From assembly GCA_016192455.1 (NCBI GenBank), contig JACPUC010000026.1:78902-142901 (forward strand): a stretch of 64,000 nucleotides of DNA. Direction: 5' to 3'. Under the pieces are notes generated by a model that was given only the letters and a program-made list of their open reading frames with translations, was not told the origin of the DNA and searched no databases. This DNA comes from Candidatus Tectimicrobiota bacterium (lineage in GTDB: Bacteria > JACPUC01). A program made the translations under genes and the position numbers. Shown here piece after piece: positions 13,130 through 58,653 of the stretch; position 1 is the first letter of the stretch; every line of letters begins with the position of its first letter.

Positions 13130-13210
13130 GCGCGGGCGCCGCAGGAGCCCATCGGCCAGCCGCCACCGCCGGCCTGGATGACTCATCACCCGTGCAGGGA
13201 GGAGCAGCGC

Positions 13211-27284: not shown

Positions 27285-28343
27285 TCAACCCTTCGGCCGC
27301 TTCCAGACGCCCCGCTCCTGCAGCCGGCGGGTGCTCTGGCGGTGAATCTCCTGGCGACCGGCGCGGCGCGGCGGGGGCTCGTGCAAAAAGAGGTTCTTGG
27401 GGAAGATCGGCTGCTCGTAGATGACCTTGTACTGTTCGGTGCGCAGGTCCTTCAGCCAATTGCCGAAAAGCGACTTGTCGCGGAAATCGCGCAGCGCCTC
27501 GATATCGACCATGGCGCTGCAGAAGGAGTCCGTCCCCGCGATGTGATGGGAGATCACTTCCCCCTTGTAGTCGCACATGATGGTGTTGCCGCCGGTGATG
27601 TCCCAGCCGTGCGGCGAGTCGGCGGTGATCATGCCGAGGGCCGGGTTGGGAGCGATGACGTAGCAGGTGTTGTCGAGGGCCCGCGTGCGCGCCCGCAGCT
27701 CGGACCAGCCGCGCCCCGCCCATGGCTCCACGTAGGTCGGCATGTAGATCACCTCGGCGCCGTTCATGGCCAGGCCGCGCGCCGTCTCCGGGAAGCTCTG
27801 ATCCATGCAGATGATGGTGCCGATGCGGCCGATCTCCGTGTCGCAGACGGGGTAGAAGGAGTCGAGGGAGTAGCCGAACTTCTCGATCCAGAGGTCCCAC
27901 ACGTCGTGGGGCACGGTGCTCGGCTCGTTCGGGTAGACCTGCAGCTTGTGGTACTTGTGGACGATCTTGCCCTTCGGGTCGATGACGAAGGCGAGGTTGA
28001 AGTAGCGATCCTCGATGATCTCCGCCTCGACGGCGCGAATCTGCCCGGCGATGAAGACGTTCAGCTCGCGGGCGATGTCGGCCAGGTAGTCCGTCTCGGG
28101 TCCGGGCACGGTGGTCATCAGCTCCTTGCAGGCGCGCACGTGGTCCCAGTCAAACATCGAGTCCGGGAACCCCTGGATGGCGCCCTCGGCGAAGCAGATG
28201 AGCTTCACGGGGTACTCGAGGCTGGCCAGCCAGTAACTGGCGCGGATGCCCTGGGCCAGGTGATCGAGGTTGCGCTTCATGTCGTCCCGACACTGGATGT
28301 TGAGGAACGTGCTCTGCACGGCAACAGCAGCGTAGCGGTCCAT
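27285..28343 (-). CDS. aliphatic amidase/formamidase (nitrilase superfamily, Cys in IICMDQSFPE)
   Basis: Similarity in pattern to AmiE (KIVHKYHKLQVYPNEP vs VQKYRKIIPW; IICMDQSFPE vs LIICDDGNYPE). Confidence 0.75.
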   Translation of the reverse strand: MDRYAAVAVQSTFLNIQCRDDMKRNLDHLAQGIRASYWLASLEYPVKLICFAEGAIQGFPDSMFDWDHVRACKELMTTVPGPETDYLADIARELNVFIAGQIRAVEAEIIEDRYFNLAFVIDPKGKIVHKYHKLQVYPNEPSTVPHDVWDLWIEKFGYSLDSFYPVCDTEIGRIGTIICMDQSFPETARGLAMNGAEVIYMPTYVEPWAGRGWSELRARTRALDNTCYVIAPNPALGMITADSPHGWDITGGNTIMCDYKGEVISHHIAGTDSFCSAMVDIEALRDFRDKSLFGNWLKDLRTEQYKVIYEQPIFPKNLFLHEPPPRRAGRQEIHRQSTRRLQERGVWKRPKG

Positions 28344-28569
28344 AGTGCTTCCCCCATCGAGCCAAGGTGGAAAACTCAGGCGCCCGGCGGCGCCGCGTTG
28401 AGGTTCACCTCAACGAAGCCGGTACTTGCGGCAGGCTCGAGCGCTCGCAAGGGGCCCGCGCGCCGCGGCGGCACTGAGCCGGCACTGGCTCACCCAGCGC
28501 CTCCCCCTGGAGGTCAGCCTCCCCGTGTAGTTGGAGATCACCGTACTGGCAGCGGGGTTCTAAAAAGGA

Positions 28570-30927
28570 TCAACCTTTTCCGTATCGCCATTGTATTTCA
28601 CCGCACTGACATTGCACCCACTCCGCGCTCTCAGCGTCGGCCAACCAAACTCCCCTGCGGCACGACGAACATATGAACGACTCAAGGGCTTTTTCACAGG
28701 CGTCAATCACCTTAACCGCTTCCTGGCGAACTAAATCGAGTGTGTGAGTTCCACGGTTGGCCCAGGACACAAGCAGCCTATCCGCTTTGTCAAGCGCGCC
28801 CGTCGCATCCGAATGGGCTACGTACTCCTGTCCCACCTTTTTCCGGAAGCACTTCTTCCCGTCCGCCACGAAGCGATCGAGAAAGTCGTGCGCTATACGT
28901 TTGTCATTCTTTTCGGCGCGAAGGTAAGGCAATCTGATTCGAAGGCGCTCAGCGATCAGTGCGAGCTCGACGTCCATGATTTTCCTGGCATCAGTTCCCG
29001 CCGAGTCAGGACGATCATTGAGCTGGGCACGAGCGTCGTCGAAGGTCGTCGTTTTGTGCGACCATCGAATACCAACCGTCGGCGTCTCATAGGGCAACAG
29101 GGTCTTAAAGGTCCAACTGTTGCCGTGAAGCTGCTGCCTAAGCTCTGTGTACCACTCACGATCATGTGTCAAGATCACCACCTGCCGCTTGGCGAACTCC
29201 TTCTCCAGCAGCTCTCTAATCATGCCTCTGTGATTCCGATCGAGACTAATAACCACATCATCGAGGAAAAGGGGTCTATCCATCTTGGCTTCGCGCTTAG
29301 CCATCGCTAAGAAGATACAGAGACCGAGGCTGTTTCTATAGCCCTCCGATAAGGTAAGCCTTGGCGATTCCTGTTCATGGCCGTGGAAGTTCAAGCCAAT
29401 ATCGATGGCTTTATCCACATCATTCGGAAAGTACAGGCGCACATTTTCGATTGGTTCTCCAGGGTGCAGGATAGACCACATTGATTGGATATCTACAGAG
29501 ATATCCTCAATCACCTTTTGTGACCGAAGTCTGATCTCCTCACGGACACCCTTTTCAAGCGAACTAACAAAATCTCTCAGAGCTTCAGCACGAGCCACTG
29601 CTGCCGCTTGCCCCTTACCCTCGATCACAGCTTTGCCCACCTCGACGGTCTGCCGGTCGGTCGAGAGCTGGCGGACATCGGGAGGCGCGTCCTCCCACGC
29701 CTTCCTTGCTAAATTGATCACCGGAAGCAGATTGGCCTCAAGTGTCTTGAGGTCTGCATCGTTGCAAGAGGTTCGAAGCACGTCCACGTTGAAGCTGTCC
29801 AAAAACGCAATCCGGTCAGCGAGCGGACCCTTGGTAATTTCGTCGCGCCAGGCCTTGATCGCGGGCTTTGAAAGGTTGGACTGGAGCGATTTACAGGTGT
29901 CACAGAGAGTCCCAACTTCTGCTTTGCGGGTATTGTAAACGTTGATGATTTTATGAAGCCGCTCGCGCTCCGACTTCAAGTGTGCCTGAAGGTTCTCCAA
30001 CGGAATGGCCCGTCCGCAGGCGGGACAATTGACTTCTTTTGCTTCTCCCAATTTGTCGAGGAACGTGACGGTCGTCTGCAACACCTCCAATTTCTCAGCG
30101 ATCAGAGGATCAACAGAGTCAGCAAACTTCATGCTAACCGAGCGCACGGCATCAATGCAATGCTTAAGGTTAATTTCGGCTACATCTTGGAGTGCGAAGT
30201 TCCTTCTCTGGTCGGCCAAGGAGCGGTCGATCCGCGTCTCCAGCTCCGCCTCCAACTCTTTGCAGCGAGATAGAGGGTCCTTCGTGGTGGCCTCGTTAGC
30301 GCAATACCTCGCGTGGAGTGTCGCTATCTTGCTGGCGATCTGGTCATCGTTGTCCGCACCAAATGTCGCCGCACGACTGTTCTTTATCCTCCCAAGCGCA
30401 ACCTTAGTGTCCTCAAACTTCGACTGTTGCGCTATCATCTTTGAGAGCTGCCGGAGGTTCTCGGCAGCAACCTCCATTTGGTGAAGTCCGAGGAGCGGAA
30501 GGAGGGTGGAGTACTTGTCTCCCTTAGTGTCGTGAATGAAGGCCGCAACCTCGTCCTGCCTCAGTACCGTGCGGTGGTATTCCCAAGTGGGCATCGCGAC
30601 GACCTCCGCACCGGAGCTTTTCGGAGAGCCGTCCGGCTTTATCTGGACCGTGAGCTCCGCGTCGTTTGTGAATGTGATCCTTAGTTCTGTCTTCCGGTCC
30701 CTCGGCTTATGTGTATTAGGTATGGCCTTCTCCTGGTGTTTCCCGCTGTACTCGTGTGAGAGATGACCAATCCTGCCATTGTGAAGAACGTACTCAACAG
30801 CATCGACGAAAGACGATTTTCCCGCTCCATTGTTTCCGTACACGACCATTGACTTGCTGTCGGGATCCAACGCCACTGGGTCGGCGGCACCCCGGAACCA
30901 CGACAGTTGGATGGACTTGATTCTCAC
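28570..30927 (-). CDS. Rad50/SbcC/RecF-like SMC-type ABC ATPase with coiled-coil zinc hook and novel C-terminal Zn-ribbon domain
   Basis: GTG start. N-lobe MRIKSIQLSWFRGA...VVYGNNGAGKSSFVDAVEYVL (Walker A). Hook-like CPACGRAIPLE...LCDTC in mid coiled coil. C-lobe LSEGYRNSLGL (signature), RPLFLDDVVISLD (Walker B/D-loop), VVILTHD (H-loop). Then ~190 aa unrecognised ending CSSCRRGVW...WVQCQCGEIQW. Confidence 0.8.
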   Translation of the reverse strand: MRIKSIQLSWFRGAADPVALDPDSKSMVVYGNNGAGKSSFVDAVEYVLHNGRIGHLSHEYSGKHQEKAIPNTHKPRDRKTELRITFTNDAELTVQIKPDGSPKSSGAEVVAMPTWEYHRTVLRQDEVAAFIHDTKGDKYSTLLPLLGLHQMEVAAENLRQLSKMIAQQSKFEDTKVALGRIKNSRAATFGADNDDQIASKIATLHARYCANEATTKDPLSRCKELEAELETRIDRSLADQRRNFALQDVAEINLKHCIDAVRSVSMKFADSVDPLIAEKLEVLQTTVTFLDKLGEAKEVNCPACGRAIPLENLQAHLKSERERLHKIINVYNTRKAEVGTLCDTCKSLQSNLSKPAIKAWRDEITKGPLADRIAFLDSFNVDVLRTSCNDADLKTLEANLLPVINLARKAWEDAPPDVRQLSTDRQTVEVGKAVIEGKGQAAAVARAEALRDFVSSLEKGVREEIRLRSQKVIEDISVDIQSMWSILHPGEPIENVRLYFPNDVDKAIDIGLNFHGHEQESPRLTLSEGYRNSLGLCIFLAMAKREAKMDRPLFLDDVVISLDRNHRGMIRELLEKEFAKRQVVILTHDREWYTELRQQLHGNSWTFKTLLPYETPTVGIRWSHKTTTFDDARAQLNDRPDSAGTDARKIMDVELALIAERLRIRLPYLRAEKNDKRIAHDFLDRFVADGKKCFRKKVGQEYVAHSDATGALDKADRLLVSWANRGTHTLDLVRQEAVKVIDACEKALESFICSSCRRGVWLADAESAEWVQCQCGEIQWRYGKG

Positions 30928-31178
30928 TCGTCCGCCTCCACCTTTGGCGGGACAGGCGCCATATCTTTGAGGAGTAAGTTGGCTAATTCAGTCAAATCAG
31001 TGGGACGAAGCTGACGCTTTCCGAGTTCATCTCTGATAAGCTCCCTCATCCGAATAGCAACGGCATCTGTCACGGTTGGATAGGCTTTCTGCGCATCGCC
31101 AACGCGCTTGGATATCCAGTTTTCCTCTCCTTCCACTGCCGTCGCCTCCCTGTTAGTCAAGCTGCCAGGAAAAGCCAC
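30924..31178 (-). CDS. small hypothetical protein (84 aa) translationally coupled to the ATPase (GTGA overlap)
   Basis: Its stop TGA (30926..30924) overlaps the GTG start (30927..30925) of the ATPase. Lies in the same low-GC island. Start uncertain (GTG, or internal Met MRELIRDELG). Confidence 0.4.
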   Translation of the reverse strand: MAFPGSLTNREATAVEGEENWISKRVGDAQKAYPTVTDAVAIRMRELIRDELGKRQLRPTDLTELANLLLKDMAPVPPKVEADE

Positions 31179-31234
31179 ATAGCATTCTCTAGCTTCTTGC
31201 TAAACACGGTCCTCACTGCGCAGCGCCAGCGTCA

Positions 31235-32362
31235 TCAGCTCCAGCCGTAGAAGCGCTTGGCGTTCGTGCAGAGAATCTTCTCCACCGCCACGGCGGAGAG
31301 GTCCTGCCGGGCGCGCAGCTCCTTCACGGCGTAGCGGTCGCGGTCGCCATGCGGCATGTCGGAGGCGAAGAGAATTTGGTCTTCGCCGACAAGCTGCAAT
31401 GCTTGCGGCAGGAGGTCGTCCTCGACCTCCGTGTTGAAGAAGAGGCGCCCGCCGGCGACGTACTCGGCGGCGCGCTCCGCCGCCACCGGCTTGGGGAGCG
31501 GCAGGAACTTCGCGATGGCGTTGAGGAAGGTGCGGCGATGATCGAGCCGGTGGGTCATGAAGTGAATCCATTCGCAGCCGGCCTCCATGAAGCCGATGCG
31601 CAGGTTCGGGAAGCGATCCAGGAGGTCGCTGGTGAGGATGGCCGCGAAGCCCATGAGGACCGGGAAGAGGAAGGCGATGACGGTCGAGGTGAGGAGATTG
31701 GGGGCCAAGCTGGAGAGTTGCGGGCTGGCCCAGCCGACGTGCAGCGCCACGGGCAGGTCCTGCGCCGCGACCTCTTCCCAGAACGGCAGCAGGCGCGGGT
31801 GGCTGAGCATGTCGTTGCCCGCCAGGCCCAGGAGCATGATGCCGCTGGCGTGCAGCTCCGTCTTCAGCCGACGCACCTCCGCCACCGCCGCGGAAACGTT
31901 ATCCAGCGGCATCACCCCCACCCAGCCGAAACGCTCGTCGCCGCCGCGCAGGTCGCACATCCAGTTGTTGTAGGCGCGGCAGAGGGCGGCCTGGAAGTCG
32001 GGATCGGCGGTGAGGGGATAGGCGAGGAAGAGGGTGGGGTAGAGAACCTGCACGTCGATGTTCTCGGCCTGCATGTCGGCGAAGCGCGCCGCGCGGTCGC
32101 GCAGCTCGAGGCTCTCCAGACTCTCCGGCTTGCCGCGGGTGAAGGGCGTCAGCTTGCCCTGGTAGTGGGCCGGCGTGCCGAGGTTCGAGGCGCCGGGACC
32201 ATGCCGGCGCGGCAGGGTCACATCATCGATGAGCCAAAACGCCTGCTCGAACGGTCCCGGAATGACCATGGGCCGTCGATTGCGGAAGCGCGGCTCCAGG
32301 TACGCGTCGCTGAAGGTTGCCTCGCACTCCTCGATGTGCGCGTCGGCGTCGATGACTTTCAT
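31235..32362 (-). CDS. amidohydrolase-2 family metal-dependent hydrolase (ACMSD-like TIM barrel)
   Basis: Internal Met MKVIDADAHIEE (HxH-type metal site) with GGGGAGG RBS. The upstream 61 codons of the track ORF are GC-rich read-in. Confidence 0.7.
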   Translation of the reverse strand: MKVIDADAHIEECEATFSDAYLEPRFRNRRPMVIPGPFEQAFWLIDDVTLPRRHGPGASNLGTPAHYQGKLTPFTRGKPESLESLELRDRAARFADMQAENIDVQVLYPTLFLAYPLTADPDFQAALCRAYNNWMCDLRGGDERFGWVGVMPLDNVSAAVAEVRRLKTELHASGIMLLGLAGNDMLSHPRLLPFWEEVAAQDLPVALHVGWASPQLSSLAPNLLTSTVIAFLFPVLMGFAAILTSDLLDRFPNLRIGFMEAGCEWIHFMTHRLDHRRTFLNAIAKFLPLPKPVAAERAAEYVAGGRLFFNTEVEDDLLPQALQLVGEDQILFASDMPHGDRDRYAVKELRARQDLSAVAVEKILCTNAKRFYGWS

Positions 32363-43728: not shown

Positions 43729-44763
43729 ATGAAAGCAGTTGTCATCCACGAGCACGGCGACCCGGAGGTCCTGAAGGAAGAGGAGTACCCAACACCGCAA
43801 CTCGGCCCCGAAGACGTGCTGGTGAAGGTGAAGGCGTGCGGCGTCAACCAGGCAGACTTGATGATCCGACGCGGCGACGTGCGCATGTATCCCAAGCTGC
43901 CCCACATCCTCGGTAGCGAGATCTCCGGCGTCGTCCACAGCGTCGGCAGCGCGGTGACGCAGTGGAAGGGGGGAGAGCGGGTCATCGTCTACCCCGGATT
44001 CGGCTGCGGGCACTGCGAGTTCTGCGTCAAGGGGCATCTCTATAGCTGCAATACCTACAAGTACTTCGGCACCCAGATGCAGGGGACTTACTCGGAGTTC
44101 GTGAAGGCTCCCTGGTACAACATGGTCCCCCTGCCGGAAGAAGTCTCCTTCGTGGAAGGGGCTGCCATCCCCATGGTGATGCTCACCTCGTGGCACATGG
44201 TGGTGGACCAGGCGAACGTGCGGCCCGGCGAGATCGTCCTGGTGCACGCCGCCGGTAGCGGCATCGGCTCGGCCTCGATCCAGATCGCCAAGCTCTGCGG
44301 CGCCACCGTCATCGCCACCGCCGGCTCCGACGACAAGGAGGAGCTGGCCAGAAGCCTCGGCGCCTCGCACTTCATCAACTACCGCAAGACCGACTTCCGC
44401 GAAGAGGTGGGGAAGATCACCAACAAGCGCGGCGTGGATGTGGTCATCGAGCACACCGGCGAGTTCACCTGGGACAAGAGCGTGCGCTCGCTGGTGAAGC
44501 ACGGCCGCCTCGTCGTCTGCGGCGCCACCTCGGGGCATAACGGCTACACGGATATCCGCTACGTCTACTACAAGCACCTCAACATCATCGGCTCGACGCT
44601 GGGCACCATCGAGAACCTGAAGCACGCGCTGCAGTATGTCGCCGCGGGCCGCATCCGCACCGTGGTCGATCGGGTCTATCCCATCAGCGAGGTGCGCAAG
44701 GCGCACGAGATCATGGAAGCCCGCCAGAACAAGGGCAAGCAGGTGCTGCAGATGTGGGACTAG
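43729..44763 (+). CDS. zinc-binding MDR-family alcohol dehydrogenase/quinone oxidoreductase
   Basis: MKAVVIHEHGDPEVL...GSEISGVV...GCGHCEFCVKGHLYSC (structural Zn Cys cluster), AAGSGIGS Rossmann. Confidence 0.85.
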   Translation: MKAVVIHEHGDPEVLKEEEYPTPQLGPEDVLVKVKACGVNQADLMIRRGDVRMYPKLPHILGSEISGVVHSVGSAVTQWKGGERVIVYPGFGCGHCEFCVKGHLYSCNTYKYFGTQMQGTYSEFVKAPWYNMVPLPEEVSFVEGAAIPMVMLTSWHMVVDQANVRPGEIVLVHAAGSGIGSASIQIAKLCGATVIATAGSDDKEELARSLGASHFINYRKTDFREEVGKITNKRGVDVVIEHTGEFTWDKSVRSLVKHGRLVVCGATSGHNGYTDIRYVYYKHLNIIGSTLGTIENLKHALQYVAAGRIRTVVDRVYPISEVRKAHEIMEARQNKGKQVLQMWD

Positions 44764-45634: not shown

Positions 45635-46486
45635 ATGGAACGCCTCACCATGCCCACCATTCTCCCCCCATGCCGGCTGCTGGTTGACGTAGCCTGGCTG
45701 CGCGCCAACCTTGGGAGTTCCAGCCTCCTCTGCATTGATGCGCGCAACGCTGAGGAGTTCGCCAAGGGGCACCTGCCGGGCGCGGTGAACGTCGATACCT
45801 ACGCCTGGGGCTGGTACGACACCTCGCCGGCGGGCTTGCAGGCATACACGCGGAAGATGGCGGGTCTCATCGCCGGTCTGGGAGTGCGGCGGCAGGACGC
45901 GGTGCTCTTCTACCAGGGCACCTCGGGGATGCTGGCGGCGCGGGGCGTCTGGCTCCTGCATTACCTCGGGCGCCAGCGCGTCGCCATGCTTGACGGCGGC
46001 CTGCGCGACTGGGCAGAGACAGGCGGGGAGGTGACGATCGAGGTCCGTGAACCCCGCGCGGCCGTTGCCCCCGGCGATGCGCCCATCCCCGATGCCGCCT
46101 GCCTGGCGTCCTACACCTACGTGCGCGAGCGTATGGGAGACAAGGCCAGCATCATCCTGGACGTGCGCGCCGACGATGAGTACCGCGGCGAGAACGTGCG
46201 CGCCAGCCGCGGCGGCACCATCCCCGGCTCGGTCCACCTCGAGTGGCAGGAGTGCCTCGGCGCCGATCGCCGGTTCCTCCCGCCCCAGGCGCTGCGGGAG
46301 CTGTTTGTCGGGCGCGGCGTCACCCCGGAGCGGGAGGTCATTACCTTCTGCCAGGGGGGCGCGCGCTCCTCGCACACCTATCTTGCCCTGCGTCAGGCTG
46401 GCTATCCGAAGGTGCGGAACTTCATCGGCTCCTGGCACGAGTGGGCCGACCGCCACGAGCTGCCGATCGAAACTCCGCAGCGATGA
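45635..46486 (+). CDS. rhodanese-domain sulfurtransferase (tandem rhodanese, active-site FCQGGARSS)
   Basis: Classical thiosulfate/3-mercaptopyruvate sulfurtransferase layout. Confidence 0.8.
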   Translation: MERLTMPTILPPCRLLVDVAWLRANLGSSSLLCIDARNAEEFAKGHLPGAVNVDTYAWGWYDTSPAGLQAYTRKMAGLIAGLGVRRQDAVLFYQGTSGMLAARGVWLLHYLGRQRVAMLDGGLRDWAETGGEVTIEVREPRAAVAPGDAPIPDAACLASYTYVRERMGDKASIILDVRADDEYRGENVRASRGGTIPGSVHLEWQECLGADRRFLPPQALRELFVGRGVTPEREVITFCQGGARSSHTYLALRQAGYPKVRNFIGSWHEWADRHELPIETPQR

Positions 46487-46555
46487 GCCGCGGGCGGGCG
46501 CCGCCGGTCCGCGCCGCGTGCCCACGGCGAGCTTGGGGATCGGGGAAGCACGGCC

Positions 46556-47467
46556 ATGACCCTCCCATCCAGCGTCAGCATTGTCGAGGTGGGGCCGCGC
46601 GACGGTTTGCAGGGAGAGGCGCGGCACGTCGCCACCGCCGACAAGATCGCCCTCATCAACCGCCTGAGCGCCTGCGGCCTGCGGCGCCTCGAGGTGTCGT
46701 CGTTCGTCAGCGCCAAGGCCATCCCGCAGCTTGCCGACGCGGCCGAGGTGCTGGCCGGCATCGAGCGCGCCCCGGGCGCGCGCTACAGCGTTCTGGTGGC
46801 GAACGAGCGCGGCTACGAGAGCGCCGCGGCGGCGGGCGCCGACGAGGTGGCCGTCTTCCTGTCGGCCAGCGAGGCCCACAACCAGCTCAACGTCGGCAAG
46901 AGCATCGCGGACACCCTGGCGAAGCTGCGGCCGGTGGCGCGGCGGGCGGCGGCGGACGGGGTGCCGGTGCGCGGCTACGTCTCCACGGTCTTCGGCTGCT
47001 CCCTCGCCGGCAAGGTGGAGGCGGCGCGGGTGGAGCGCATCTGCGGCGAGCTTGCCGACATGGGGGTGGGGGAAATCTCGCTGGGGGACACCATCGGCGT
47101 GGCGCACCCGCCGCAGGTTCAGGCCATGATCGAGGGGCTGCGCGCGCGGCTTGGCGACCTGCCACTGGCGCTGCATCTCCACGATACCCTCGGGCGCGGG
47201 CTGGCGAACGTCTGGGCGGGATTGCAGGCGGGGATTCGCGTCTTCGACAGCTCGGTCGGCGGGCTGGGAGGCTGCCCCAATACGCCGGGAGGGGCCGGCA
47301 ACATCGCCACGGAGGACCTCGTGAGCCTGCTGCGGGCCATGGGCATCGCCTGCGGCGTGGAGGAGGAGGCGATCCGCGCGGTGGCGCGCTTCGCGGCGTC
47401 GCTCGTCGATCACCCCCTGGCCAGCCACTGCGCTTACGCCGGCGGCACCGCGGAGGAGAGAGCGTGA
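46556..47467 (+). CDS. hydroxymethylglutaryl-CoA lyase
   Basis: SIVEVGPRDGLQ..., DTIGVAHP, LHLHDTLG, GGLGGCP motifs. Confidence 0.85.
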   Translation: MTLPSSVSIVEVGPRDGLQGEARHVATADKIALINRLSACGLRRLEVSSFVSAKAIPQLADAAEVLAGIERAPGARYSVLVANERGYESAAAAGADEVAVFLSASEAHNQLNVGKSIADTLAKLRPVARRAAADGVPVRGYVSTVFGCSLAGKVEAARVERICGELADMGVGEISLGDTIGVAHPPQVQAMIEGLRARLGDLPLALHLHDTLGRGLANVWAGLQAGIRVFDSSVGGLGGCPNTPGGAGNIATEDLVSLLRAMGIACGVEEEAIRAVARFAASLVDHPLASHCAYAGGTAEERA

Positions 47468-48243
47468 GCGAGGCCCCCCTGCTCATCGAAGATCGCGAGA
47501 CCGTGCGCTGGCTCATCCTGAATCGGCCCGAGAGCCGCAATGCGCTGAGCCGCGACCTCGTGGCTCGGCTTGGCGAGGCGGTGGCAGCGACGGCCGCGGA
47601 GCACGGCGTGCGCGTGGTGGTGCTGCGCGGCGCCGGCGACGAGGCGTTCTGCGCCGGGGCTGACTTGAAGGAGCGGCGCAGCATGGGCGACGATGAGGTG
47701 CGCGCCTTCCTGCGTGGGCTGGGGGCGGTGATCACCGCCATCGAGGAGCTGCCGCAACCGGTGGTGGCGGCCATCAACGGTCACGCCCTCGGCGGTGGGC
47801 TGGAGCTGAGCCTCTGCTGCGACCTGCGGCTGGCGGCCGAGCATGCCCGCCTGGGGCTGCCGGAGGTGCGCCTGGGGATCATTCCCGGCGCCGGCGGCAC
47901 CCAGCGCCTGCCGCGCATTGTCGGGCCGGCGCGGGCACGCGAGCTGATCCTCACCGGGCGCCAGCTCAGCGCCATCGAGGCCCTGCCGTACGGCCTCGTG
48001 CACCGCGTGGTGGCCGCCGAGCGGCTTGACGAGGCGGTCGGGGATCTCTGCCAGGAGCTCCTCCTCGCCGCGCCTATCTCCCAGGCGCAGGCGAAACGAG
48101 CCCTGCGCGCCGCCGAGGCGGACCTCGCCACCGGCCTCGCCTTCGAGACCGCCGCCTACGAGCGCTGTCTGCACTCGGAGGACCGGCTTGAAGCCCTCGC
48201 CGCCTTCCGCGACAAGCGCCCTCCCCACTTCCAGGGACGCTAA
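47464..48243 (+). CDS. enoyl-CoA hydratase/isomerase family protein
   Basis: GTG start overlaps the HMGL stop (GTGA). FCAGADLKE, INGHALGGGLELSLCCD crotonase motifs. Confidence 0.8.
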   Translation: MSEAPLLIEDRETVRWLILNRPESRNALSRDLVARLGEAVAATAAEHGVRVVVLRGAGDEAFCAGADLKERRSMGDDEVRAFLRGLGAVITAIEELPQPVVAAINGHALGGGLELSLCCDLRLAAEHARLGLPEVRLGIIPGAGGTQRLPRIVGPARARELILTGRQLSAIEALPYGLVHRVVAAERLDEAVGDLCQELLLAAPISQAQAKRALRAAEADLATGLAFETAAYERCLHSEDRLEALAAFRDKRPPHFQGR

Positions 48244-52863: not shown

Positions 52864-52990
52864 GGGGTTGAGCGGAAATCTTGCTTGACCTTTCCTGGTC
52901 CCGGCACGGGCGGGAAGGGGTATGGGTGGGGGCAAGAATCCGTTCTGCCCCGCTGCGCATCATGGTTTCGCTCCAGAGAGGAGGACCCCT

Positions 52991-54310
52991 GTGAGTCGCC
53001 AATCTCCAGCCAGCTTCTGCGGCTTGCTGCTCATGGTGATGACCGCGTGGTTGAGTGGCCCTCTGCTTACCACCACGCAGGCGCAACAGAACAGCACCCT
53101 CCCCAAGGGCATGCCCACGGAGCAGGTATTGGAGGGTCTCACCAAGCGCCTCGATGAGCTCTTCGCACAGATGCAGCAACTGCGCGGCGAGAACGAGCGC
53201 CTGCGCGCTCAGGTGGACTTCATCGCGGCGCAGAAGCAGAAGCCTACCGCCAAGCAGGCGGCGCCGGGTCCGCTCCTGCCGGGTCACCTGATCAGCGCGG
53301 TTCATCTGCCGGAAAAGGTGACCTTTGCCGGCGAGCCCGTCCCTCTCGACCGCTGGGATGTTCGTGAACGGCTGGAGCGCGAGTTCTTCACCTTCTTGGG
53401 GGAGCCGGCGAAAGTTCTCCTGCTGATGAAACGGAGCGGACGGTTCTTCCCCTACCTCGAGGCGCAGCTCCGCAAGCACAGCTTGCCGGATGATCTCAAA
53501 TACCTCGCCGCCGTGGAGAGCTGGCTGAACACGAGTGCCTACTCCCACGCAGGCGCTTCCGGGGTGTGGCAGTTCATCAAGTCGACGGGCCGGCGCTACG
53601 GCATGCGCTATGACACCTGGGTGGATGATCGCCGCGATCTGGAGAAGTCAACGCGCGCGGCGATGCGCTACTTGAGCGAGCTCCAGGCGCGGTTCAGCAA
53701 CTGGCCGCTGGTGATGGCGGCCTACAATGCCGGGGAGTCACGCGTCTCCCGCGAGCTCGGCGAGCAGAGGGTAACGAGCTACTACCAGCTTGACCTGCCG
53801 CTGGAGACGGAGCGCTACGTTTTCAAGATCATCGCCATCAAGCTCATCTTCGAGTATGGGCGGGAACTCGGTTTTCAGCTCGCCCGCAACGATTTCTACG
53901 AACCCTACGATACGGAACCCGTGCAGGTGAAAATCCAGAAGCAGCGGGTGCACTTGAGCGAGGTGGCGAAGGCTGCGAAAACGTACTTCCGCCAGTTGAA
54001 ACGGCTCAATCCATCATTCCGCCGCGACTCCCTGCCCCGAGGCACGTACCGGCTGCACATCCCCAAGGGGCACGCAGCGGACTTTGCCCGCACCTTCGCC
54101 GCGGCGCAAGGGGTGAAACCAGAGGTGCTGGCGGGACACCGCGTCGACCCGGAGCCGCAACGGCTTCTCCACGAGGTGCGCCCGGGCGAGACGCTTTGGG
54201 CTATCGCTGATCGTTACGACGTGACGGTGCCGCTCCTGCGGCAATGGAACGATCTCGCAAAGAAACCGCCCATCTTTCCTGGAGACGACATCGTCATCCT
54301 GACGCGCTGA
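52991..54310 (+). CDS. membrane-bound lytic murein transglycosylase (SLT domain) with C-terminal LysM (MltD-like)
   Basis: GTG start after GAGGAGGA. Signal/TM, coiled coil, SLT motifs (ES.LN..A.S..GA.G.WQF; AAYNAGESRV), LysM (VRPGETLWAIADRYDVTVPLLRQWND). Confidence 0.8.
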   Translation: MSRQSPASFCGLLLMVMTAWLSGPLLTTTQAQQNSTLPKGMPTEQVLEGLTKRLDELFAQMQQLRGENERLRAQVDFIAAQKQKPTAKQAAPGPLLPGHLISAVHLPEKVTFAGEPVPLDRWDVRERLEREFFTFLGEPAKVLLLMKRSGRFFPYLEAQLRKHSLPDDLKYLAAVESWLNTSAYSHAGASGVWQFIKSTGRRYGMRYDTWVDDRRDLEKSTRAAMRYLSELQARFSNWPLVMAAYNAGESRVSRELGEQRVTSYYQLDLPLETERYVFKIIAIKLIFEYGRELGFQLARNDFYEPYDTEPVQVKIQKQRVHLSEVAKAAKTYFRQLKRLNPSFRRDSLPRGTYRLHIPKGHAADFARTFAAAQGVKPEVLAGHRVDPEPQRLLHEVRPGETLWAIADRYDVTVPLLRQWNDLAKKPPIFPGDDIVILTR

Positions 54311-54460
54311 GGAACCCCAGGGAATAGGCCCTATCTCCCGTCCCCGGGTCCGATGCGGCGCCATGCGGGGGCGAGTGCGCTGATGTGCTTGGCGTGCGGC
54401 GGCAGCCTGGACGCTGCGTGCCCGCCGGCGTGTGCAGCGGAGCTCCAAGGAAGCGTGGTC

Positions 54461-57436
54461 ATGCTGGTCGAGGCCATCACCGGCTTGAGCCGCGGCGAGG
54501 TGTTGCGCGGGCAGCTCGTCCACCATGAGATTCTTCCCGCCTGCACGCCGCTGTACGGCGCGCCTGCGGCGCCGCTGTCGCCGCTCCTCGCCACGACGCT
54601 CCGCGGCGCCGGCATCGAGCAGCTCTACGTCCACCAGGCCGCCGCCCTCGACGCCGCGCGCGCCGGCCGCAACGTGCTCCTCACCACGCCGACGGGGAGC
54701 GGCAAGACGCTGGCTTTCAACCTGCCGATCATCGAGGCGCTGCTCCGCGCCGGAGCGCCTGCCGCGGCCGGCGCCGCTCCAGCCCACGCCCTCTACCTCT
54801 TTCCCCTGAAAGCCCTCGAGCAGGACCAACTGCAAGGGCTGCGGGGCCTCCTGGCGCTCCTGCCGCCGGGCGCTCGTCCCTTGCGGGCCGACATCTACGA
54901 CGGCGACACCCCTCCGGCGCGGCGTCGCAAGCTGCGCGACAGCCCGCCGGACATCCTCATCAGCAACCCCGACATGCTGCACCGCAGCCTGCTGGCCTAC
55001 CATGCTCAATGGGCGGAGTTCTTCCGCCGCCTGCGCTTCGTGGTCCTCGACGAGCTGCATACCTACAAGGGCATCTTCGGCTCGCATGTCGCCCAGGTGC
55101 TGCGGCGGCTGCGCCGGCTCTGCGCCTTCTACGGCGCGCGGCCGCAGTTCATCGCCTGCTCCGCCACCATCGCCAACGCTCGCGAGTTCGCCCTGCGCCT
55201 GAGCGGGCTTGAGTTCGACGTGGTGGCCCGCAATGGCGCCCCGCAGACCGCTCGCCACCTCCTCTTCGTCAACCCCGCCGGCAGCCCTTACACGCTCGCC
55301 GCCAACCTCTTCAAGGCGTGCCTCCGCGCCGGCCTGAAGACGATCGCCTTCACGAAGGCGCGCAAGATCACCGAGCTGCTGCACGCCTGGTGCGTCCAGG
55401 GCGACCCGGAGCTGGCGCAGACCATCAGCTCCTACCGCGCCGGTTTCCTGCCGGAGGAGCGCCGCCAGATCGAGGCGAAGCTCTTCTCTGGAGAGCTGCA
55501 CGGCGTCATCTCAACCAGCGCCCTGGAAATGGGGGTCGATATCGGCGGCCTGGACGCCTGCCTCCTGGTCGGCTATCCCGGCACGATCACCACCACCTGG
55601 CAGCGCGCCGGGCGCGTCGGCCGCGCCGACCGCCCCGCCGTCATCTTCCTCATCGCGCAAGCGGACGCCCTCGACCAGTATTTCATGCGCCATCCGCGCA
55701 ACTTCTTCGAGCGCGGCTACGAAAGCGCCACCCTCGATCCCGACAACCCCGAGGTGCTGGCGCCGCACCTCCTCTGCGCCGCCGCCGAGCTGCCGCTGCG
55801 CGCCGATGACGCGGTCTTCGCGCTGCCGCGGCACGCCCCCCTCCTGGCGGAGCTGGAGCGCTCCCACCAGCTCGTGCGCAGCGCCGCCGGCGACGAGTGG
55901 TACGCCGCCACCCGGCAGCCGCACCGGCAGACCGACATCCGCGCCATCGGGGAGTCGTTCACCATCTTCGGCCCCGGCGCCAGGGAGGTCGTCGGCACCA
56001 TCAGCGGCGGCCGCGTGCTGAGCGAGTGTCACGAGGGGGCGATCTACCTGCACCGCGCCCGCCAGCACCTCATCACCGACCTCGACCTGGAGCGGCGCAA
56101 CGTGCGCGGCAAACCGGTGGAGGTGAACTACTACACCCGCGCCCAGGGGGAAAAATCGACCTCCATCCTCAGCCGCGACGACTCCAAGCCGGTGGCCAAT
56201 TTCCTCGTCCGGCGGGGCCGCCTGCGCGTCACCTCGCAGATTCTCAGCTTCGAAAAGCGCCGCGTCTTCGGCGGCGATCTCCTCAGCACCCATCCCTTGA
56301 ACCTGCCCCCCGAATCCTTTGAGACGGTGGGACTATGGATTGAGATCGAGAATGTCATCAAGCATGCCGTGCAGGCGAGGCAGCTCCACTTCATGGGCGC
56401 TATCCACGCTGTCGAGCATGCCGCCATCGCCCTCCTGCCTCTCTTCGTCCTCTGCGAGCGGGATGACATGGGGGGCATCTCCTACGCCGAGCACCCCGAG
56501 GTGGGCAAGGCGGCGATCTTCCTCTACGACGGCTACCCCGGCGGCGTGGGACTTGCCGCCCATGCCTACACGCTCATCGAGGAGCTGCTGCGGGCAACCC
56601 TCGAGCTGCTGCGCGACTGCCCCTGCGAGGAGGGCTGCCCTTCCTGCGTCCACTCGCCGAAGTGCGGCTCCGGGAACAAACCCCTCGACAAGCCGGGCGC
56701 CATCTTCGTGCTGCGGGCCTTGCTGGGCGACCTCAGCCTCGCCGAGTTGGCGCAGGTGCAGGCCGAACGGGGGCAGGTCGGCATGGGGGCGCGGTACGCG
56801 CTGTCGTCGGGGCAGGCGGCAGCCGATCACCAGCCGGCGGCGGTGACCGCCTCGCGGAGGCAAGAGGAGCCGCGCATCGTCACATTCGATCTGGAGACCC
56901 AGCGCAGCGCCGAGGAGGTGGGCGGTTGGCAGAACAAGCACCTCATGCGCGTCTCCCTGGCGGTCGCCTACGACAGCAGCACCGGACTTTACACGACCTA
57001 CCGCGAGGAGGAGCTCGACAAGCTCGTCGCCCTGCTTGCCGAGGCCGATCTCGTGCTGGGATTCAATATCGCGCAGTTCGATTTCGTCGTCCTCGGCGCC
57101 TACACCCCCTTCGACCTGCGCTCCCTGCCGGTCCTCGATCTCCTCCAGGAGGTGCAGGAGCGCCTCGGTTTCAGGCTGAGCCTCAACCACCTGGCGGAGA
57201 AGACCCTCGGCGATGCGAAGACCGCCGAAGGGCTGCAGGCCATCACCTGGTTCCGCGACGGCGCCTGGGAGGAACTGGAGGCCTACTGCCGGCACGATGT
57301 GGAGCTGACGCACCGCCTCTTCCGCTTCGGCTTGGAGCAGGGCTACCTGCTCTATGAGACGAAAGCGGGCCACCTCGTCCGCCTACCCCTCGACTGGGAC
57401 CTGCGGGCTCGCTGCCGTCAGCAGGCGAAGGGCTGA
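54461..57436 (+). CDS. MrfA/YprA-like DEAD/DEAH helicase with DUF1998 Cys4 domain fused to C-terminal DEDD(h) 3'-5' exonuclease (MrfB-like)
   Basis: Helicase motifs TPTGSGKTLAF, DELH, SAT, VISTSALEMGVDIG, QRAGRVGR. DUF1998 Cys cluster DCPCEEGCPSCVHSPKCGSGN. C-terminal exonuclease motifs VTFDLETQR (Exo I), ...GFNIAQFDFVVL (Exo II), YCRHDVELTHRLF (Exo III, H-x4-D). Confidence 0.8.
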   Translation: MLVEAITGLSRGEVLRGQLVHHEILPACTPLYGAPAAPLSPLLATTLRGAGIEQLYVHQAAALDAARAGRNVLLTTPTGSGKTLAFNLPIIEALLRAGAPAAAGAAPAHALYLFPLKALEQDQLQGLRGLLALLPPGARPLRADIYDGDTPPARRRKLRDSPPDILISNPDMLHRSLLAYHAQWAEFFRRLRFVVLDELHTYKGIFGSHVAQVLRRLRRLCAFYGARPQFIACSATIANAREFALRLSGLEFDVVARNGAPQTARHLLFVNPAGSPYTLAANLFKACLRAGLKTIAFTKARKITELLHAWCVQGDPELAQTISSYRAGFLPEERRQIEAKLFSGELHGVISTSALEMGVDIGGLDACLLVGYPGTITTTWQRAGRVGRADRPAVIFLIAQADALDQYFMRHPRNFFERGYESATLDPDNPEVLAPHLLCAAAELPLRADDAVFALPRHAPLLAELERSHQLVRSAAGDEWYAATRQPHRQTDIRAIGESFTIFGPGAREVVGTISGGRVLSECHEGAIYLHRARQHLITDLDLERRNVRGKPVEVNYYTRAQGEKSTSILSRDDSKPVANFLVRRGRLRVTSQILSFEKRRVFGGDLLSTHPLNLPPESFETVGLWIEIENVIKHAVQARQLHFMGAIHAVEHAAIALLPLFVLCERDDMGGISYAEHPEVGKAAIFLYDGYPGGVGLAAHAYTLIEELLRATLELLRDCPCEEGCPSCVHSPKCGSGNKPLDKPGAIFVLRALLGDLSLAELAQVQAERGQVGMGARYALSSGQAAADHQPAAVTASRRQEEPRIVTFDLETQRSAEEVGGWQNKHLMRVSLAVAYDSSTGLYTTYREEELDKLVALLAEADLVLGFNIAQFDFVVLGAYTPFDLRSLPVLDLLQEVQERLGFRLSLNHLAEKTLGDAKTAEGLQAITWFRDGAWEELEAYCRHDVELTHRLFRFGLEQGYLLYETKAGHLVRLPLDWDLRARCRQQAKG

Positions 57437-57473
57437 CCCCGATCGCGGCGCGGACGCCGGCCCCGCGGGCTTG

Positions 57474-57501
57474 ACACCGAGGTTCCCCGCCGCTACATTA
57501 C
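57474..57501 (+). promoter_or_regulatory. sigma70-like promoter candidate TTGACA-N16-TACATT
   Basis: Seen directly upstream of yacG. Confidence 0.35.
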
Positions 57502-57532
57502 AGTCGCTCTTGGGTCGCGCCGGGGCAAGAGG

Positions 57533-57841
57533 TTGGTGGTGGCGCTCAAACGAGGAGGCGCCAACCGGAAGGCGGCTTCGGGAACGACATGCCCCGGGGG
57601 CGAGGGTCTTGTGGCGAAGGCTTCCACGACCAAGGAACGTCAGCGCCCCTGCCCGCAATGCGGCCAGCTCGCGGGCTGGGAAAACAATCCCTACCGGCCG
57701 TTCTGCTCGCAGCGCTGCAAACTCCTTGATCTTGGCGCCTGGATCGATGAGCGCTACGCGATCCCCAGCGAGGATGCGATCGCGGCCGAGGAGCGGGCTG
57801 ACCGCGCCTCCTCTCCAGAAGAGGGAACGAAGTCAGAGTAA
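57533..57841 (+). CDS. yacG: DNA gyrase inhibitor YacG (zinc-finger)
   Basis: RPCPQCGQLAGWENNPYRPFCSQRCKLLDLGAWIDERYAIP is the YacG signature. True start may be the internal GTG (~57611), giving a ~76-aa protein. Confidence 0.7.
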   Translation: MVVALKRGGANRKAASGTTCPGGEGLVAKASTTKERQRPCPQCGQLAGWENNPYRPFCSQRCKLLDLGAWIDERYAIPSEDAIAAEERADRASSPEEGTKSE

Positions 57842-57930
57842 CGCCGTCTTACCTCCTGGAGTGGCGAAGGCGCCTCACCCGGCGCTGGGTGGGTGGTGGC
57901 TTCTGATACGTGGTGGGGGGAAGACATCCC

Positions 57931-58653
57931 ATGGACCGTGCGATGCGGAACAGCACTGCAAGCCGAGCCTGGCGCGTCTGCCTGGTGGCGGGACTGATCA
58001 CCGTGCTCTGCCTCTTCGCGTCGCCGAGCTTCGCGGCCATCTATAGCTGGCTCGACCGTGGCGGAACCCGCTACTACACGAACGATCCGGACGAGGTCCC
58101 GGTGGAGCATCGGGCAGCGAACAAGCTCGAGGTCTACACCTGGACCGGTGTAGACGGCAAGCGCCAGTATACGCTGACCAAAGCCGAGGTGCCGCCGCGC
58201 TTCCGGCGCGAGGCCGGCATCACCATGCTCTACAAATGGGTCGATGAGAAGAAGGTCGTCCATTACGCCTTCGACCTCGACGATGTACCGCCACGCTGGC
58301 GGAACATGGCGACCAAGGAGACGGGTGAGGCGCTGATCAGCGCCAAGGTGGACACGCCGACGAAGGAGGAGTTGGCCTCGGCCAGCGCCAGGCCGCAAGC
58401 GGGCGCCGCGCAGAAGCAGCCGGCAGTCAATCCCTTCGTGGAAGCGCTGCAACGCGCCAAAGACCGTTCGGGTGCTCCCGGACCGGGAGCCGCAACCGGC
58501 AAGCCCCAGCCGGCCAACCCCTTTGTCGAAGCGCTGAAGCGAGCCAAGGAGAGGCGCCAGCAGGCCGCCCAAGAAACTCAAGGCCAGGAAGAGCAGCCGC
58601 AAGGCTCATCAAATCCCTTCCTCGACGCCATACGTCGCACGCGTGATCAATAG
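57931..58653 (+). CDS. DUF4124-domain periplasmic protein with three NPF(V/L)(E/D)A(L/I)xRA(K/R)(D/E) C-terminal repeats
   Basis: Signal peptide. Two DUF4124-like units (IYSWLDRGGTRYYTNDPDEVP; LYKWVDEKKVVHYAFDLDDVP). Confidence 0.55.
   Translation: MDRAMRNSTASRAWRVCLVAGLITVLCLFASPSFAAIYSWLDRGGTRYYTNDPDEVPVEHRAANKLEVYTWTGVDGKRQYTLTKAEVPPRFRREAGITMLYKWVDEKKVVHYAFDLDDVPPRWRNMATKETGEALISAKVDTPTKEELASASARPQAGAAQKQPAVNPFVEALQRAKDRSGAPGPGAATGKPQPANPFVEALKRAKERRQQAAQETQGQEEQPQGSSNPFLDAIRRTRDQ

Follow-up and report, generated by a model that had tools for sequence, protein, structure and literature searches.

A complete open reading frame encoding 991 aa plus a stop was confirmed at positions 54461–57436, on the forward strand, of the window (i.e., the whole 64,000-nucleotide stretch of DNA that was analysed). 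Its stop codon occupied 57434–57436. An upstream in-frame ATG at 54353 would yield an alternative product of 1027 aa; the start at 54461 agreed both with the deposited protein (P0001; 100% identity and coverage, 991 aa) and with the N-termini of homologues, and AAGGA was present ~11 nt 5' of it. The product was identical to a 991-aa protein deposited from a Candidatus Tectomicrobia metagenome-assembled genome (MAG), and the identical protein was present on three contigs. A Pfam search of the 991 aa identified DEAD, Helicase_C, WHD_HRQ1 and MZB/DUF1998 domains, with the limits given below, followed by RNase_H_2 (PF13482) at residues 844–954. The AF2 model of the whole protein had a pLDDT of 83.8, with disorder limited to the linker between helicase and exonuclease. 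The features of the gene are as follows.

54461..57436, + strand: fused helicase-exonuclease gene; complete ORF, 991 aa plus stop, with an identical 991-aa NCBI protein
54632..55183, + strand: RecA1 / DEAD domain, residues 58–241 (Pfam PF00270, 105 bits)
54689-54709, + strand: Walker A motif TPTGSGKT (G81 and K82 invariant)
55049-55060, + strand: DExH motif, DELH (D197, E198 and H200 invariant)
55325..55627, + strand: RecA2 / Helicase_C domain, residues 289–389, including motif VI QRAGRVGR (Pfam PF00271, 41 bits)
55733..55948, + strand: winged-helix domain, residues 425–496 (Pfam PF22982 WHD_HRQ1, 40 bits)
55949..56410, + strand: beta-rich OB-fold and connector of the MrfA 'canopy', residues ~497–650 (colinear with MrfA 6znp)
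56411..56650, + strand: MZB / DUF1998 zinc-binding domain, residues 651–730 (Pfam PF09369, 88 bits)
56618-56647, + strand: Cys4 module, C720, C722, C726 and C729 (four cysteines invariant)
56771..56863, + strand: linker between helicase and exonuclease, residues 771–801 (pLDDT <50; poorly conserved and gapped in alignment)
56864..57400, + strand: putative DEDDy 3'-5' exonuclease domain, residues 802–980, ~180 aa (PF13482, invariant catalytic residues, fold)
56888-56896, + strand: Exo I, FDLETQ (D810 and E812 invariant)
57065-57082, + strand: Exo II, NxxxFD, N869–D874 (N869 and D874 invariant)
57284-57298, + strand: Exo III, YCRHD, Y942–D946 (Y942 and D946 invariant)

The helicase part

The SF2 motifs and the Cys4 module were all invariant in 42 homologues, and motif VI was represented by the invariant residues Q381, R382, G384, R385, G387 and R388 in the homologue alignment. 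Residues 22–732 were colinear with residues 25–732 of 6znp, the B. subtilis MrfA/YprA helicase, in a single alignment (E = 1.7e-143), and pairwise comparison with MrfA gave 35% identity (E = 1e-159). Between the winged helix and the zinc-binding domain, the AF2 model placed beta strands at residues 499–629 with a pLDDT of ~85–95; the names used here for the OB, connector and 'canopy' region are those of Roske et al., as they are given in a preprint on the YprA family from 2025 (10.1101/2025.09.15.676423). For Burby & Simmons, the mark of an MrfA homologue was an MZB/DUF1998 domain at the C-terminal end in which four cysteines are conserved. Three features that characterise the MrfA/YprA family were found, namely an intact SF2 core, the Cys4 MZB/DUF1998 domain, and a colinear winged-helix-OB-connector-MZB array after the RecA domains.

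The protein also matched positions 20–741 of the 742-position profile TIGR03817 (DECH_helic) with 710.6 bits, the match stopping at residue 757, ahead of the exonuclease domain. Since the curated NCBIfam cut-off for this equivalog is 874.1 bits, the protein is a relative of the TIGR03817 equivalog and not a member. M. smegmatis SftH and the TIGR03817 DECH helicases (the 'YprA-only' branch) are among the closest known systems; unlike the fused protein, the TIGR03817 profile does not cover an exonuclease domain. Taken together, these comparisons support the identification of the N-terminal ~760 residues as a putative SF2 DNA helicase of the MrfA/YprA family, for which ATP-dependent 3'-5' DNA helicase activity is predicted.

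The exonuclease domain and its relationship to MrfB

D810, E812, D874, Y942 and D946 were kept in at least 98% of the best 120 fused homologues and were also invariant among stand-alone relatives of the domain; H945, the neighbour of D946, was only ~70–90% conserved. Because the invariant tyrosine (Y942) stands four positions before D946, the domain is of the DEDDy type. Against PF13482, the whole 991-aa sequence scored 23.2 bits and the exonuclease domain taken alone 26.9 bits, and 22 of 22 family members matched; with a gathering threshold of 22 bits this was a marginal pass, compared with 136 bits for Bacillus MrfB. The AF2 model of the domain had a pLDDT of 94.4 and a pTM of 0.90, and placed Y942 and D946 on a helix at residues 936–960. 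Its top Foldseek matches were the proofreading domains of archaeal PolB (including 4flu) and T7 polymerases (E ~3e-6, TM 0.62–0.66), and matches in BFVD included phage proteins described as 'YprB ribonuclease H-like'. A profile search of the PDB with the exonuclease alignment produced chance matches only, and did not retrieve 8UN9. The protein terminated ~10 residues past the exonuclease fold, and the Pfam search found no TPR domain in the 991 aa. The model confidently predicts a fold like that of the proofreading exonucleases of family B DNA polymerases, and the conserved residues support a catalytically intact, putative 3'-5' exonuclease.

These results bear out the central claim of the earlier note, that an MrfA/YprA-type DUF1998 helicase and a DEDD 3'-5' exonuclease are joined in one polypeptide: there was an end-to-end alignment with 6znp, an invariant DEDD set and a PolB-type fold (pLDDT 94). 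All of the motifs that it had quoted (GSGKT, DELH, Cys4 and Exo I–III) were present, with catalytic and zinc residues invariant across 42 or 120 homologues. The DEDD residues were likewise present in the C-terminal region on alignment, and the Pfam domains that it had anticipated were detected (DEAD, Helicase_C and MZB/DUF1998, with the nuclease appearing as RNase_H_2).

The nearest known system is B. subtilis MrfA and MrfB (PDB 6ZNP and 8UN9); MrfA and the helicase part (35% identity) aligned colinearly from near the N-terminus as far as the Cys4. A separate gene of ~410–580 aa was located directly 3' of mrfA in 69 of 80 Bacillales loci, as expected from the claim that helicase and exonuclease are separate neighbouring genes in Bacillus; the fused protein is encoded by a single gene instead of two adjacent ones, and both arrangements link helicase to nuclease physically. 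Burby & Simmons (10.1101/426304) found an epistatic relationship and an interaction between MrfA and MrfB, and a published AlphaFold-Multimer model puts the 3' end of MrfA-bound DNA close to the MrfB active site. The exonuclease domain and MrfB belong to a common Pfam family (PF13482), and the domain is predicted to be, as MrfB is, a DEDD 3'-5' exonuclease of the Mg type in a PolB-like fold class. They differ at the fifth catalytic residue, which is tyrosine in the fused protein (Y942-x3-D946) and histidine in MrfB (H258-x3-D262). The ~100-aa N-terminal extension of MrfB, modelled as docking on MrfA, was absent from the fused protein, where beta1 of the exonuclease domain was directly preceded by the disordered linker. 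The C-terminal TPR domain, for which the Bacillales MrfBs gave matches, was lacking too. P. aeruginosa MrfB is likewise without TPR, so this domain is not universal among MrfBs; moreover, the P. aeruginosa MrfA/B homologues failed to complement B. subtilis mutants, which indicates that function diverges within the MrfA/MrfB family.

Similarity between the exonuclease domain and Bacillus MrfB was not detected by BLASTP, and profile-versus-sequence HMM scores were ≤11 bits in both directions. Alignment by hhalign gave E = 0.016 with a low probability (2.9), with Exo I and Exo II correctly aligned. In a joint MAFFT alignment with 14 Bacillales MrfBs, Exo I, a GGxxN loop, Exo II and the FDLL of beta5 co-aligned, such that D810, E812 and D874 corresponded to D107, E109 and D172 of MrfB. 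Burby & Simmons recognised MrfB homologues by conservation of the four acidic DEDD residues, and D810, E812, D874 and D946 were invariant here. The nearest structural neighbours of MrfB are the same polymerase proofreading domains, with 4FLU among the top matches (Manthei et al. 2024, PMC11194089); on the basis of this shared neighbour, a PolB-proofreading-like fold with a long alpha-C helix appears to be common to the exonuclease domain and MrfB. By sequence comparison, the exonuclease domain does not appear to be a close relative of MrfB. Its description as 'MrfB-like' stood at the level of Pfam family and fold, but not at closer range, given the lack of BLASTP similarity, tyrosine for histidine, the absence of TPR and N-terminal extension, and 23–27 bits against 136.

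Authenticity, genomic context and origin of the fusion

More than 100 homologues shared 53–60% identity, the same length and the same architecture. The best 120 were 911–1028 aa long (median 981) with 92–100% query coverage and the same domain order, and came from independent assemblies in several phyla; named sources included Tectomicrobia, KSB1, Deltaproteobacteria/Thermodesulfobacteriota and Syntrophaceae. A census, in which matches were classified by HMM coordinates, added ~28 further full-length fused cluster representatives. The suggestion that the fusion was lineage-specific was therefore contradicted by its presence in several phyla. It is conceivable that the long ORF is an artefact, in which a frameshift of sequencing or assembly, or a missed stop, merged mrfA with an exonuclease gene. 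The source sequence is a MAG, and one relative, L090, was split into three ORFs in a long-read assembly; as L090 is broken, frameshift errors do happen in data of the fused-gene family. However, the near-full-length homologues and census representatives, the occurrence of the same 991-aa protein on three contigs, and a linker that is in frame, with conservation picking up directly downstream of it in the homologue alignment, all oppose this reading. Because >100 homologues have the fused architecture, no frameshift is hidden in the gene, which answers the concern of the earlier note on this point. The artefact reading is refuted in practice, and its probability is negligible.

The neighbours of the fused gene in the window included an SLT/LysM transglycosylase, a GDP-mannose dehydratase and similar genes. 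At five fused loci (the window and four others) the neighbours were unrelated, metabolic or housekeeping genes that differed between lineages; none of the conserved partners sought at these loci was found, including DrmB/C with a methylase, DruA-D/H, the dpd cluster and BrxHII/PglX. A small lipoprotein-like gene lay just 3' of the fused gene in two loci (L086 and L087), but nothing comparable was present in the window. No RNA genes were matched when the entire window was scanned against Rfam. A role in anti-phage defence was also considered, in which the helicase-nuclease would resemble those YprA helicases of the Druantia (DruE), ARMADA or DISARM type that have nuclease domains or nuclease partners. 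PADLOC models for DruE, BrxH, SngC, DpdJ and DrmA did match the protein, with E down to 7e-43, but these matches were confined to the generic SF2 core (~residues 50–410), although the models have 700–2000 positions, and the entire helicase was colinear with repair-type MrfA instead. [quoted passage not shown] Fusions of the same exonuclease clade to a phage Gp157 domain and to WYL would favour defence, as would an LmuB-like ATPase in a low-GC patch 24 kb distant, but local GC content was typical for the window. DISARM DrmA, Druantia DruE, Dpd DpdJ and ARMADA are distinguished by operon partners, a defence-island context, full-length model matches and PLD, Vsr or PD-(D/E)xK nucleases, none of which were encountered here. 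The defence alternative offered in the earlier note thus found no support, and is considered very improbable.

The origin of the exonuclease module is more evenly balanced. Its stand-alone relatives (44–57% identity) occurred in unrelated contexts with no adjoining helicase, and others were the Gp157 and WYL fusions already described, which shows that the module has uses beyond partnership with MrfA. No true split mrfA-exonuclease operon was seen among the stand-alone exonuclease genes examined; the sole apparent case, L090, looks like a frameshift-broken fused gene. A tblastn search of 50,697 phage genomes with the domain gave no match, which leaves a recent origin from phages without support, the Gp157 fusions notwithstanding. 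One reading is that the module is not orthologous to MrfB and was recruited independently from a separate subfamily of small DEDDy exonucleases encoded by stand-alone genes, so that the fusion arose by convergence and not by merger of an mrfA-mrfB operon. The helicase-free contexts of the relatives and the missing split operon favour this, as do the failure of BLASTP, the weak profile and hhalign scores, the marginal PF13482 score, the tyrosine four positions before the last aspartate, and the absence of both TPR domain and N-terminal extension. Against it, the domain and MrfB both exceed the PF13482 threshold and share colinear motifs beyond the catalytic residues (GGxxN loop, beta5 FDLL and SL), as well as the PolB-like, long alpha-C fold class; the 2025 survey (10.1101/2025.09.15.676423) counts fused domains as MrfB/YprB homologues, and the TPR-less MrfB homologues of P. 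aeruginosa could link both groups. Independent recruitment was accordingly given a little less than even weight. The specific claim that the nuclease is a captured member of a widespread, uncharacterised ~180-aa DEDDy exonuclease subfamily, and not a descendant of the MrfB operon, is tentative and slightly more doubtful still. Some of the stand-alone exonucleases have an N-terminal QLGLF, possibly a beta-clamp-binding motif. Independent recruitment would leave the biochemical mechanism of the best explanation unchanged, and differs from it only in evolutionary history.

Proposed function and significance

The product of the gene is probably a single-chain helicase-nuclease with a housekeeping function in DNA repair, most likely in excision repair. 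Helicase polarity, DNA as the substrate, cooperation of the two activities and the repair role are all predicted properties. As a homologue of B. subtilis MrfA and M. smegmatis SftH, the helicase part would be expected to translocate 3'-to-5' on single-stranded DNA. It would load on a single-stranded 3' terminus, or where a nick or gap flanks a lesion, and unwind the damaged strand. The small DEDDy exonuclease (of the PolB-proofreading / YprB PF13482 fold), held by a flexible tether of ~30 residues, would then digest the freed 3' end, leaving an excision tract equivalent to the one envisaged when MrfA and MrfB act as two separate proteins. Where the N-terminal extension of MrfB would dock non-covalently on MrfA in Bacillus, the fused protein would rely on its covalent link. 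The lesion type need not be mitomycin C.

Fusion of a helicase to an exonuclease has precedents elsewhere. In the Werner syndrome protein WRN, a DEDDy exonuclease at the N-terminus precedes a RecQ helicase. Staphylococcus aureus DinG similarly has an N-terminal 3'-5' exonuclease (PMC12345164). In both, an SF2 helicase is likewise covalently joined to a 3'-5' exonuclease of the DnaQ superfamily for DNA-repair processing, but they belong to other helicase families (RecQ for WRN; XPD-like, with 5'-3' polarity, for DinG) and their exonuclease is N-terminal, and not C-terminal as in the fused protein. WRN and DinG are analogues, not homologous fusions. Closer to hand, MrfA-MrfB fusions are mentioned by Burby & Simmons 2018/2019 (10.1101/426304, Fig. 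6 legend), and a clade 'fused to MrfB/YprB homologs' in the 2025 YprA-family preprint (10.1101/2025.09.15.676423), the supplements of which yielded no text for MrfB, YprB or 'fused'. These published fusions are mentioned only, not characterised; they have the same architecture, in which a YprA helicase of the repair branch is followed by an exonuclease of the YprB type, and may belong to the same clade as the Tectomicrobia/Deltaproteobacteria type. The earlier note had called the architecture notable: the fusion is real, but it is not new. With its occurrence in several phyla and its prior mention in the literature, it is a sound but ordinary find, and current views are not overturned.

In the manner of a 'Rosetta stone', the fusion supports the view that MrfA-type helicases work with a 3'-5' exonuclease, and extends this coupling beyond Firmicutes to Tectomicrobia, KSB1, Thermodesulfobacteriota/Deltaproteobacteria and Syntrophaceae. 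If independent capture were true, YprA-family helicases would have gained a 3'-5' exonuclease at least twice, and the small stand-alone exonucleases would make up a novel class of nucleases associated with repair or replication, with a partner that could be inferred from the fusion. Being DEDDy, and without TPR and docking extension, the fused forms mark those features of MrfB that a tethered arrangement of the two activities can do without. They also offer a single-chain protein for structural study of how the 3' end is handed over to the nuclease, which would sidestep the instability of full-length MrfB reported in the literature.

Integrity and spread of the fused reading frame

The target ORF on the forward strand was unbroken as far as its stop codon at 57434–57436. 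Its earliest in-frame ATG lies at 54353, but the start at 54461, as already given in the earlier note, was the better one: the resulting 991 aa equal the length of the deposited protein P0001, the consensus of homologue N-termini agrees, and AAGGA occurs ~11 nt 5' of this codon. P0001, from a Candidatus Tectomicrobia MAG, matched the target with 100% identity and coverage; its annotation reads only 'DEAD/DEAH box helicase'. GC content around the gene was 0.67–0.71, which is typical for the window.

Comparison with homologues bore out the proposal that helicase and exonuclease form a single polypeptide. The best 120 homologues from the protein search were all 911–1028 aa long (median 981) and 52–60% identical to the target over 92–100% of the query, and most carried a precomputed C-terminal match to PF13482 or PF01612. 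They came from independent assemblies (NCBI, JGI, ENA and Logan); where named, the sources were Tectomicrobia, KSB1, Deltaproteobacteria, Syntrophaceae and Thermodesulfobacteriota. Conservation among these 120 proteins fell in a linker (approximately residues 755–805) and returned sharply from residue 806. Since homologues of like size occurred in independent assemblies and conservation resumed after the linker, a frameshift or missed stop codon as the origin of the long ORF could be excluded by sequence comparison. The fusion, which the earlier note thought might be lineage-specific, is not so restricted, being abundant and present in several phyla.

Domains of the fused protein and comparison with MrfA and MrfB

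Pfam matches in the target protein (gene 54461–57436, forward strand)
Residues 58–241: DEAD
Residues 289–389: Helicase_C
Residues 425–496: WHD_HRQ1
Residues 651–730: MZB ('MrfA Zn-binding domain', formerly DUF1998)
Residues 844–954: RNase_H_2 (PF13482), marginal (23.2 bits against a cut-off of 22)

NCBIfam TIGR03817 covered the full length of the target with 710 bits, not reaching its cut-off of 874. The closest solved structure was B. subtilis YprA/MrfA (6znp), which aligned in a single piece (target 22–732, chain 25–732, E = 1.7e-143), while BLASTP with a Bacillus MrfA gave 35% identity over 726 columns, reaching the CPCxxGCPSC motif. In a 42-sequence homologue alignment, the Walker A residues G81 and K82, the DExH residues D197, E198 and H200, the motif VI residues Q381, R382, G384, R385, G387 and R388, and the cysteines C720, C722, C726 and C729 were all invariant. 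Immediately after these four cysteines, residues 731–744 (56651–56692) formed a near-invariant extension, HSPKCGSGNKPLDK, that is absent from Bacillus MrfA; it includes C735, a fifth invariant cysteine in the same alignment, and could serve as an alternative ligand for zinc or as a structural cap.

The catalytic DEDD residues claimed for the C-terminal region were all present: D810, E812, D874, Y942 and D946 were kept in at least 98% of the 120 fused homologues, and remained invariant once stand-alone relatives joined the alignment. In the full-length AF2 model (pLDDT 83.8, pTM 0.77) residues 771–801 were disordered and the domain that follows was confident; modelled alone, the exonuclease domain reached pLDDT 94.4 and pTM 0.90. 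Its order was DnaQ-like (beta1-beta2-beta3-alphaA-beta4-alphaB-beta5-...-long alphaC), with Exo I where beta1 ends, Exo II (NxxxFD) at the start of alphaB and Y942-x3-D946 within the long last helix; this predicted motif placement is as a DEDD exonuclease requires. The top Foldseek matches in the PDB were proofreading domains, from archaeal family B polymerases (5mdn, 4ahc, 1tgo, KOD/9N, 4flu) and from T7 DNA polymerase, with E from ~3e-6 to 3e-5 and TM of 0.6–0.66 for the PolB matches. Polymerase proofreading domains of the PolB/T7 type are DEDDy enzymes. In a viral structure library, the matches were exonuclease domains of phage polymerases, together with 'YprB ribonuclease H-like' proteins from phages.

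The separate arrangement described for Bacillus was seen in 69 of 80 Bacillales mrfA loci fetched with the 6znp sequence, where a gene of ~410–580 aa lay directly 3' of mrfA; that of B. tequilensis matched PDB 8UN9, 'Exonuclease MrfB' (E = 1e-163). The description of the fused exonuclease as MrfB-like held for Pfam family and fold class only. BLASTP of the domain against the Bacillales MrfB set found no similarity, HMM-versus-sequence comparison in either direction gave at most 11 bits, and PF13482 scored 136 bits for MrfB against 23–27 bits for the fused domain. Hhalign gave E = 0.016 at a low probability (2.9), with Exo I and Exo II correctly aligned; a joint MAFFT alignment placed Exo I, the GGxxN loop, Exo II and the beta5 'FDLL' in register, with Exo III shifted by three residues. 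In MrfB the catalytic H258 stands four residues before D262; the target has the same spacing, but with a tyrosine (Y942 and D946). MrfB is DEDDh although structurally nearest to DEDDy PolB-type exonucleases (Manthei et al. 2024, PMC11194089). The fused domain also lacks the TPR domain at the C-terminus of MrfB and its N-terminal extension of ~100 residues, in place of which there is the disordered covalent linker. That extension wraps the MrfA winged helix in an AlphaFold-Multimer model, and two-hybrid data showed it to be needed for binding MrfA (Burby & Simmons, 10.1101/426304). In our reading, the fused domain and MrfB share a Pfam family and a fold class yet fall into different subfamilies, and the fusion could have originated either through the merger of an operon or through an independent capture.

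Distribution of the exonuclease module and gene context

A profile of the exonuclease domain, applied to 1.84 billion cluster representatives, matched 4003 proteins at E ≤ 1e-3, a number that fell to 2099 at E ≤ 1e-10 and to 574 at E ≤ 1e-30. When the best 148 matches were mapped onto the full-length profile, 30 began at the helicase N-terminus (28 being full-length fused proteins) and 34 began within the helicase and were colinear through the exonuclease domain, these being fragments of fused genes, mostly of 220–630 aa. The other 84 matched the exonuclease domain only, genuine stand-alone genes among them. One such gene, encoding a 205-aa Nitrospinaceae protein, recurred on over 20 contigs, with fliD on one side and a MoxR ATPase gene on the other; others adjoined thyX, a cyclophilin-like gene or an SNase gene. 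No MrfA-type helicase was adjacent to a stand-alone gene in the loci examined. Three retrieved Nitrospinaceae homologues (P0230, P0222 and P0211; L001, L002 and L003, each at 6001–6618) were 44% identical to the fused domain and began MSEQLGLFGE... Here, 'QLGLF' is similar to QL[SD]LF, the beta-clamp-binding motif of bacteria, and this N-terminus hints that the free exonuclease may be recruited by the sliding clamp.

On one 113-kb contig (L090, 3208–5753), a relative of the fused gene was divided among three consecutive ORFs on the same strand, which encoded DEAD plus Helicase_C (340 aa), the middle region (168 aa) and the exonuclease domain (250 aa); this is probably not a genuine split operon but a fused gene in a frameshift-ridden assembly, or else a pseudogene. 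Members of the exonuclease clade (>200 bits to the domain profile) were also fused C-terminally to a Siphovirus Gp157 (Sipho_Gp157) domain in two proteins and to WYL in a third (P0321, P0325 and P0382, with P0325 at 1993–3063 of L085). The context of this fusion type was retrieved once, on a short 5-kb contig beside an AAA_35 ATPase gene. Tblastn of the exonuclease domain against 50,697 phage genomes found no match.

Genes upstream of the target
52922–54310, same strand: SLT/LysM lytic transglycosylase
Further upstream, opposite strand: GDP-mannose 4,6-dehydratase

No recognisable gene followed the target downstream; candidate ORFs at 57354–58046 and 57754–58602 had no Pfam match, and another at 57910–58653 matched DUF4124 weakly. 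The only sigma-70-like promoter match in 52.5–59 kb (57471–57499, forward strand; TTGACA, 17-nt spacer, TACATT; 10 of 12 positions) lay 35 nt past the target stop codon. Four other fused loci had surroundings quite unlike these, with a gene of the CoA-binding/succinyl-CoA ligase family, glycolysis genes, a radical-SAM gene and genes for carboxyl transferases. Directly 3' of two closely related fused genes was a gene of ~145 aa (L086, 9007–9453; L087, 8925–9359) with a lipoprotein-like N-terminus and no Pfam match, which had no counterpart in the window. PADLOC matches of the target (DruE, BrxH, DpdJ and DrmA) spanned the generic SF2 core only, and the defence role suggested in the earlier note is therefore not supported.

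Elsewhere in the window, a low-GC patch at ~28000–32000 (0.57–0.60, against ~0.68 elsewhere) contained a 784-aa SMC_N/AAA_13/AAA_15/AAA_23 ATPase (28570–30927, reverse strand). Its best PADLOC matches were Lamassu LmuB models (E = 8.6e-27); this may be a Lamassu-like defence gene gained by horizontal transfer. ARAGORN called three tRNAs (44197–44290, reverse; 46738–46835, forward; 13081–13166, reverse), two of them over-long (94 and 98 nt), and one of these two inside an enoyl-CoA hydratase ORF (46243–48243). Rfam at the gathering threshold found no tRNA across the whole window; the long pair, at least, probably represents false calls.

Putative function

The target protein, with its conserved architecture, intact catalytic residues and predicted folds, most likely works in excision repair as a single-chain machine. 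Its MrfA-type motor would move 3'-5' on ssDNA and peel off the damaged strand, while the tethered DEDDy exonuclease would digest the freed 3' end; helicase polarity, DNA substrate, cooperation of both activities and the repair role are all presumed here by analogy with the MrfAB literature. Distant homologues failed to complement B. subtilis mutants, and a divergence of function was suggested (Burby & Simmons).

MrfA-MrfB fusions were already mentioned in the Fig. 6 legend of Burby & Simmons (10.1101/426304), and fused forms in a 2025 YprA-family preprint (10.1101/2025.09.15.676423); fused members have been mentioned in the literature, but none studied. What is modestly new is that the fused nuclease is a DEDDy form, that it does without TPR domain and docking extension, and that its subfamily also circulates as small stand-alone genes.
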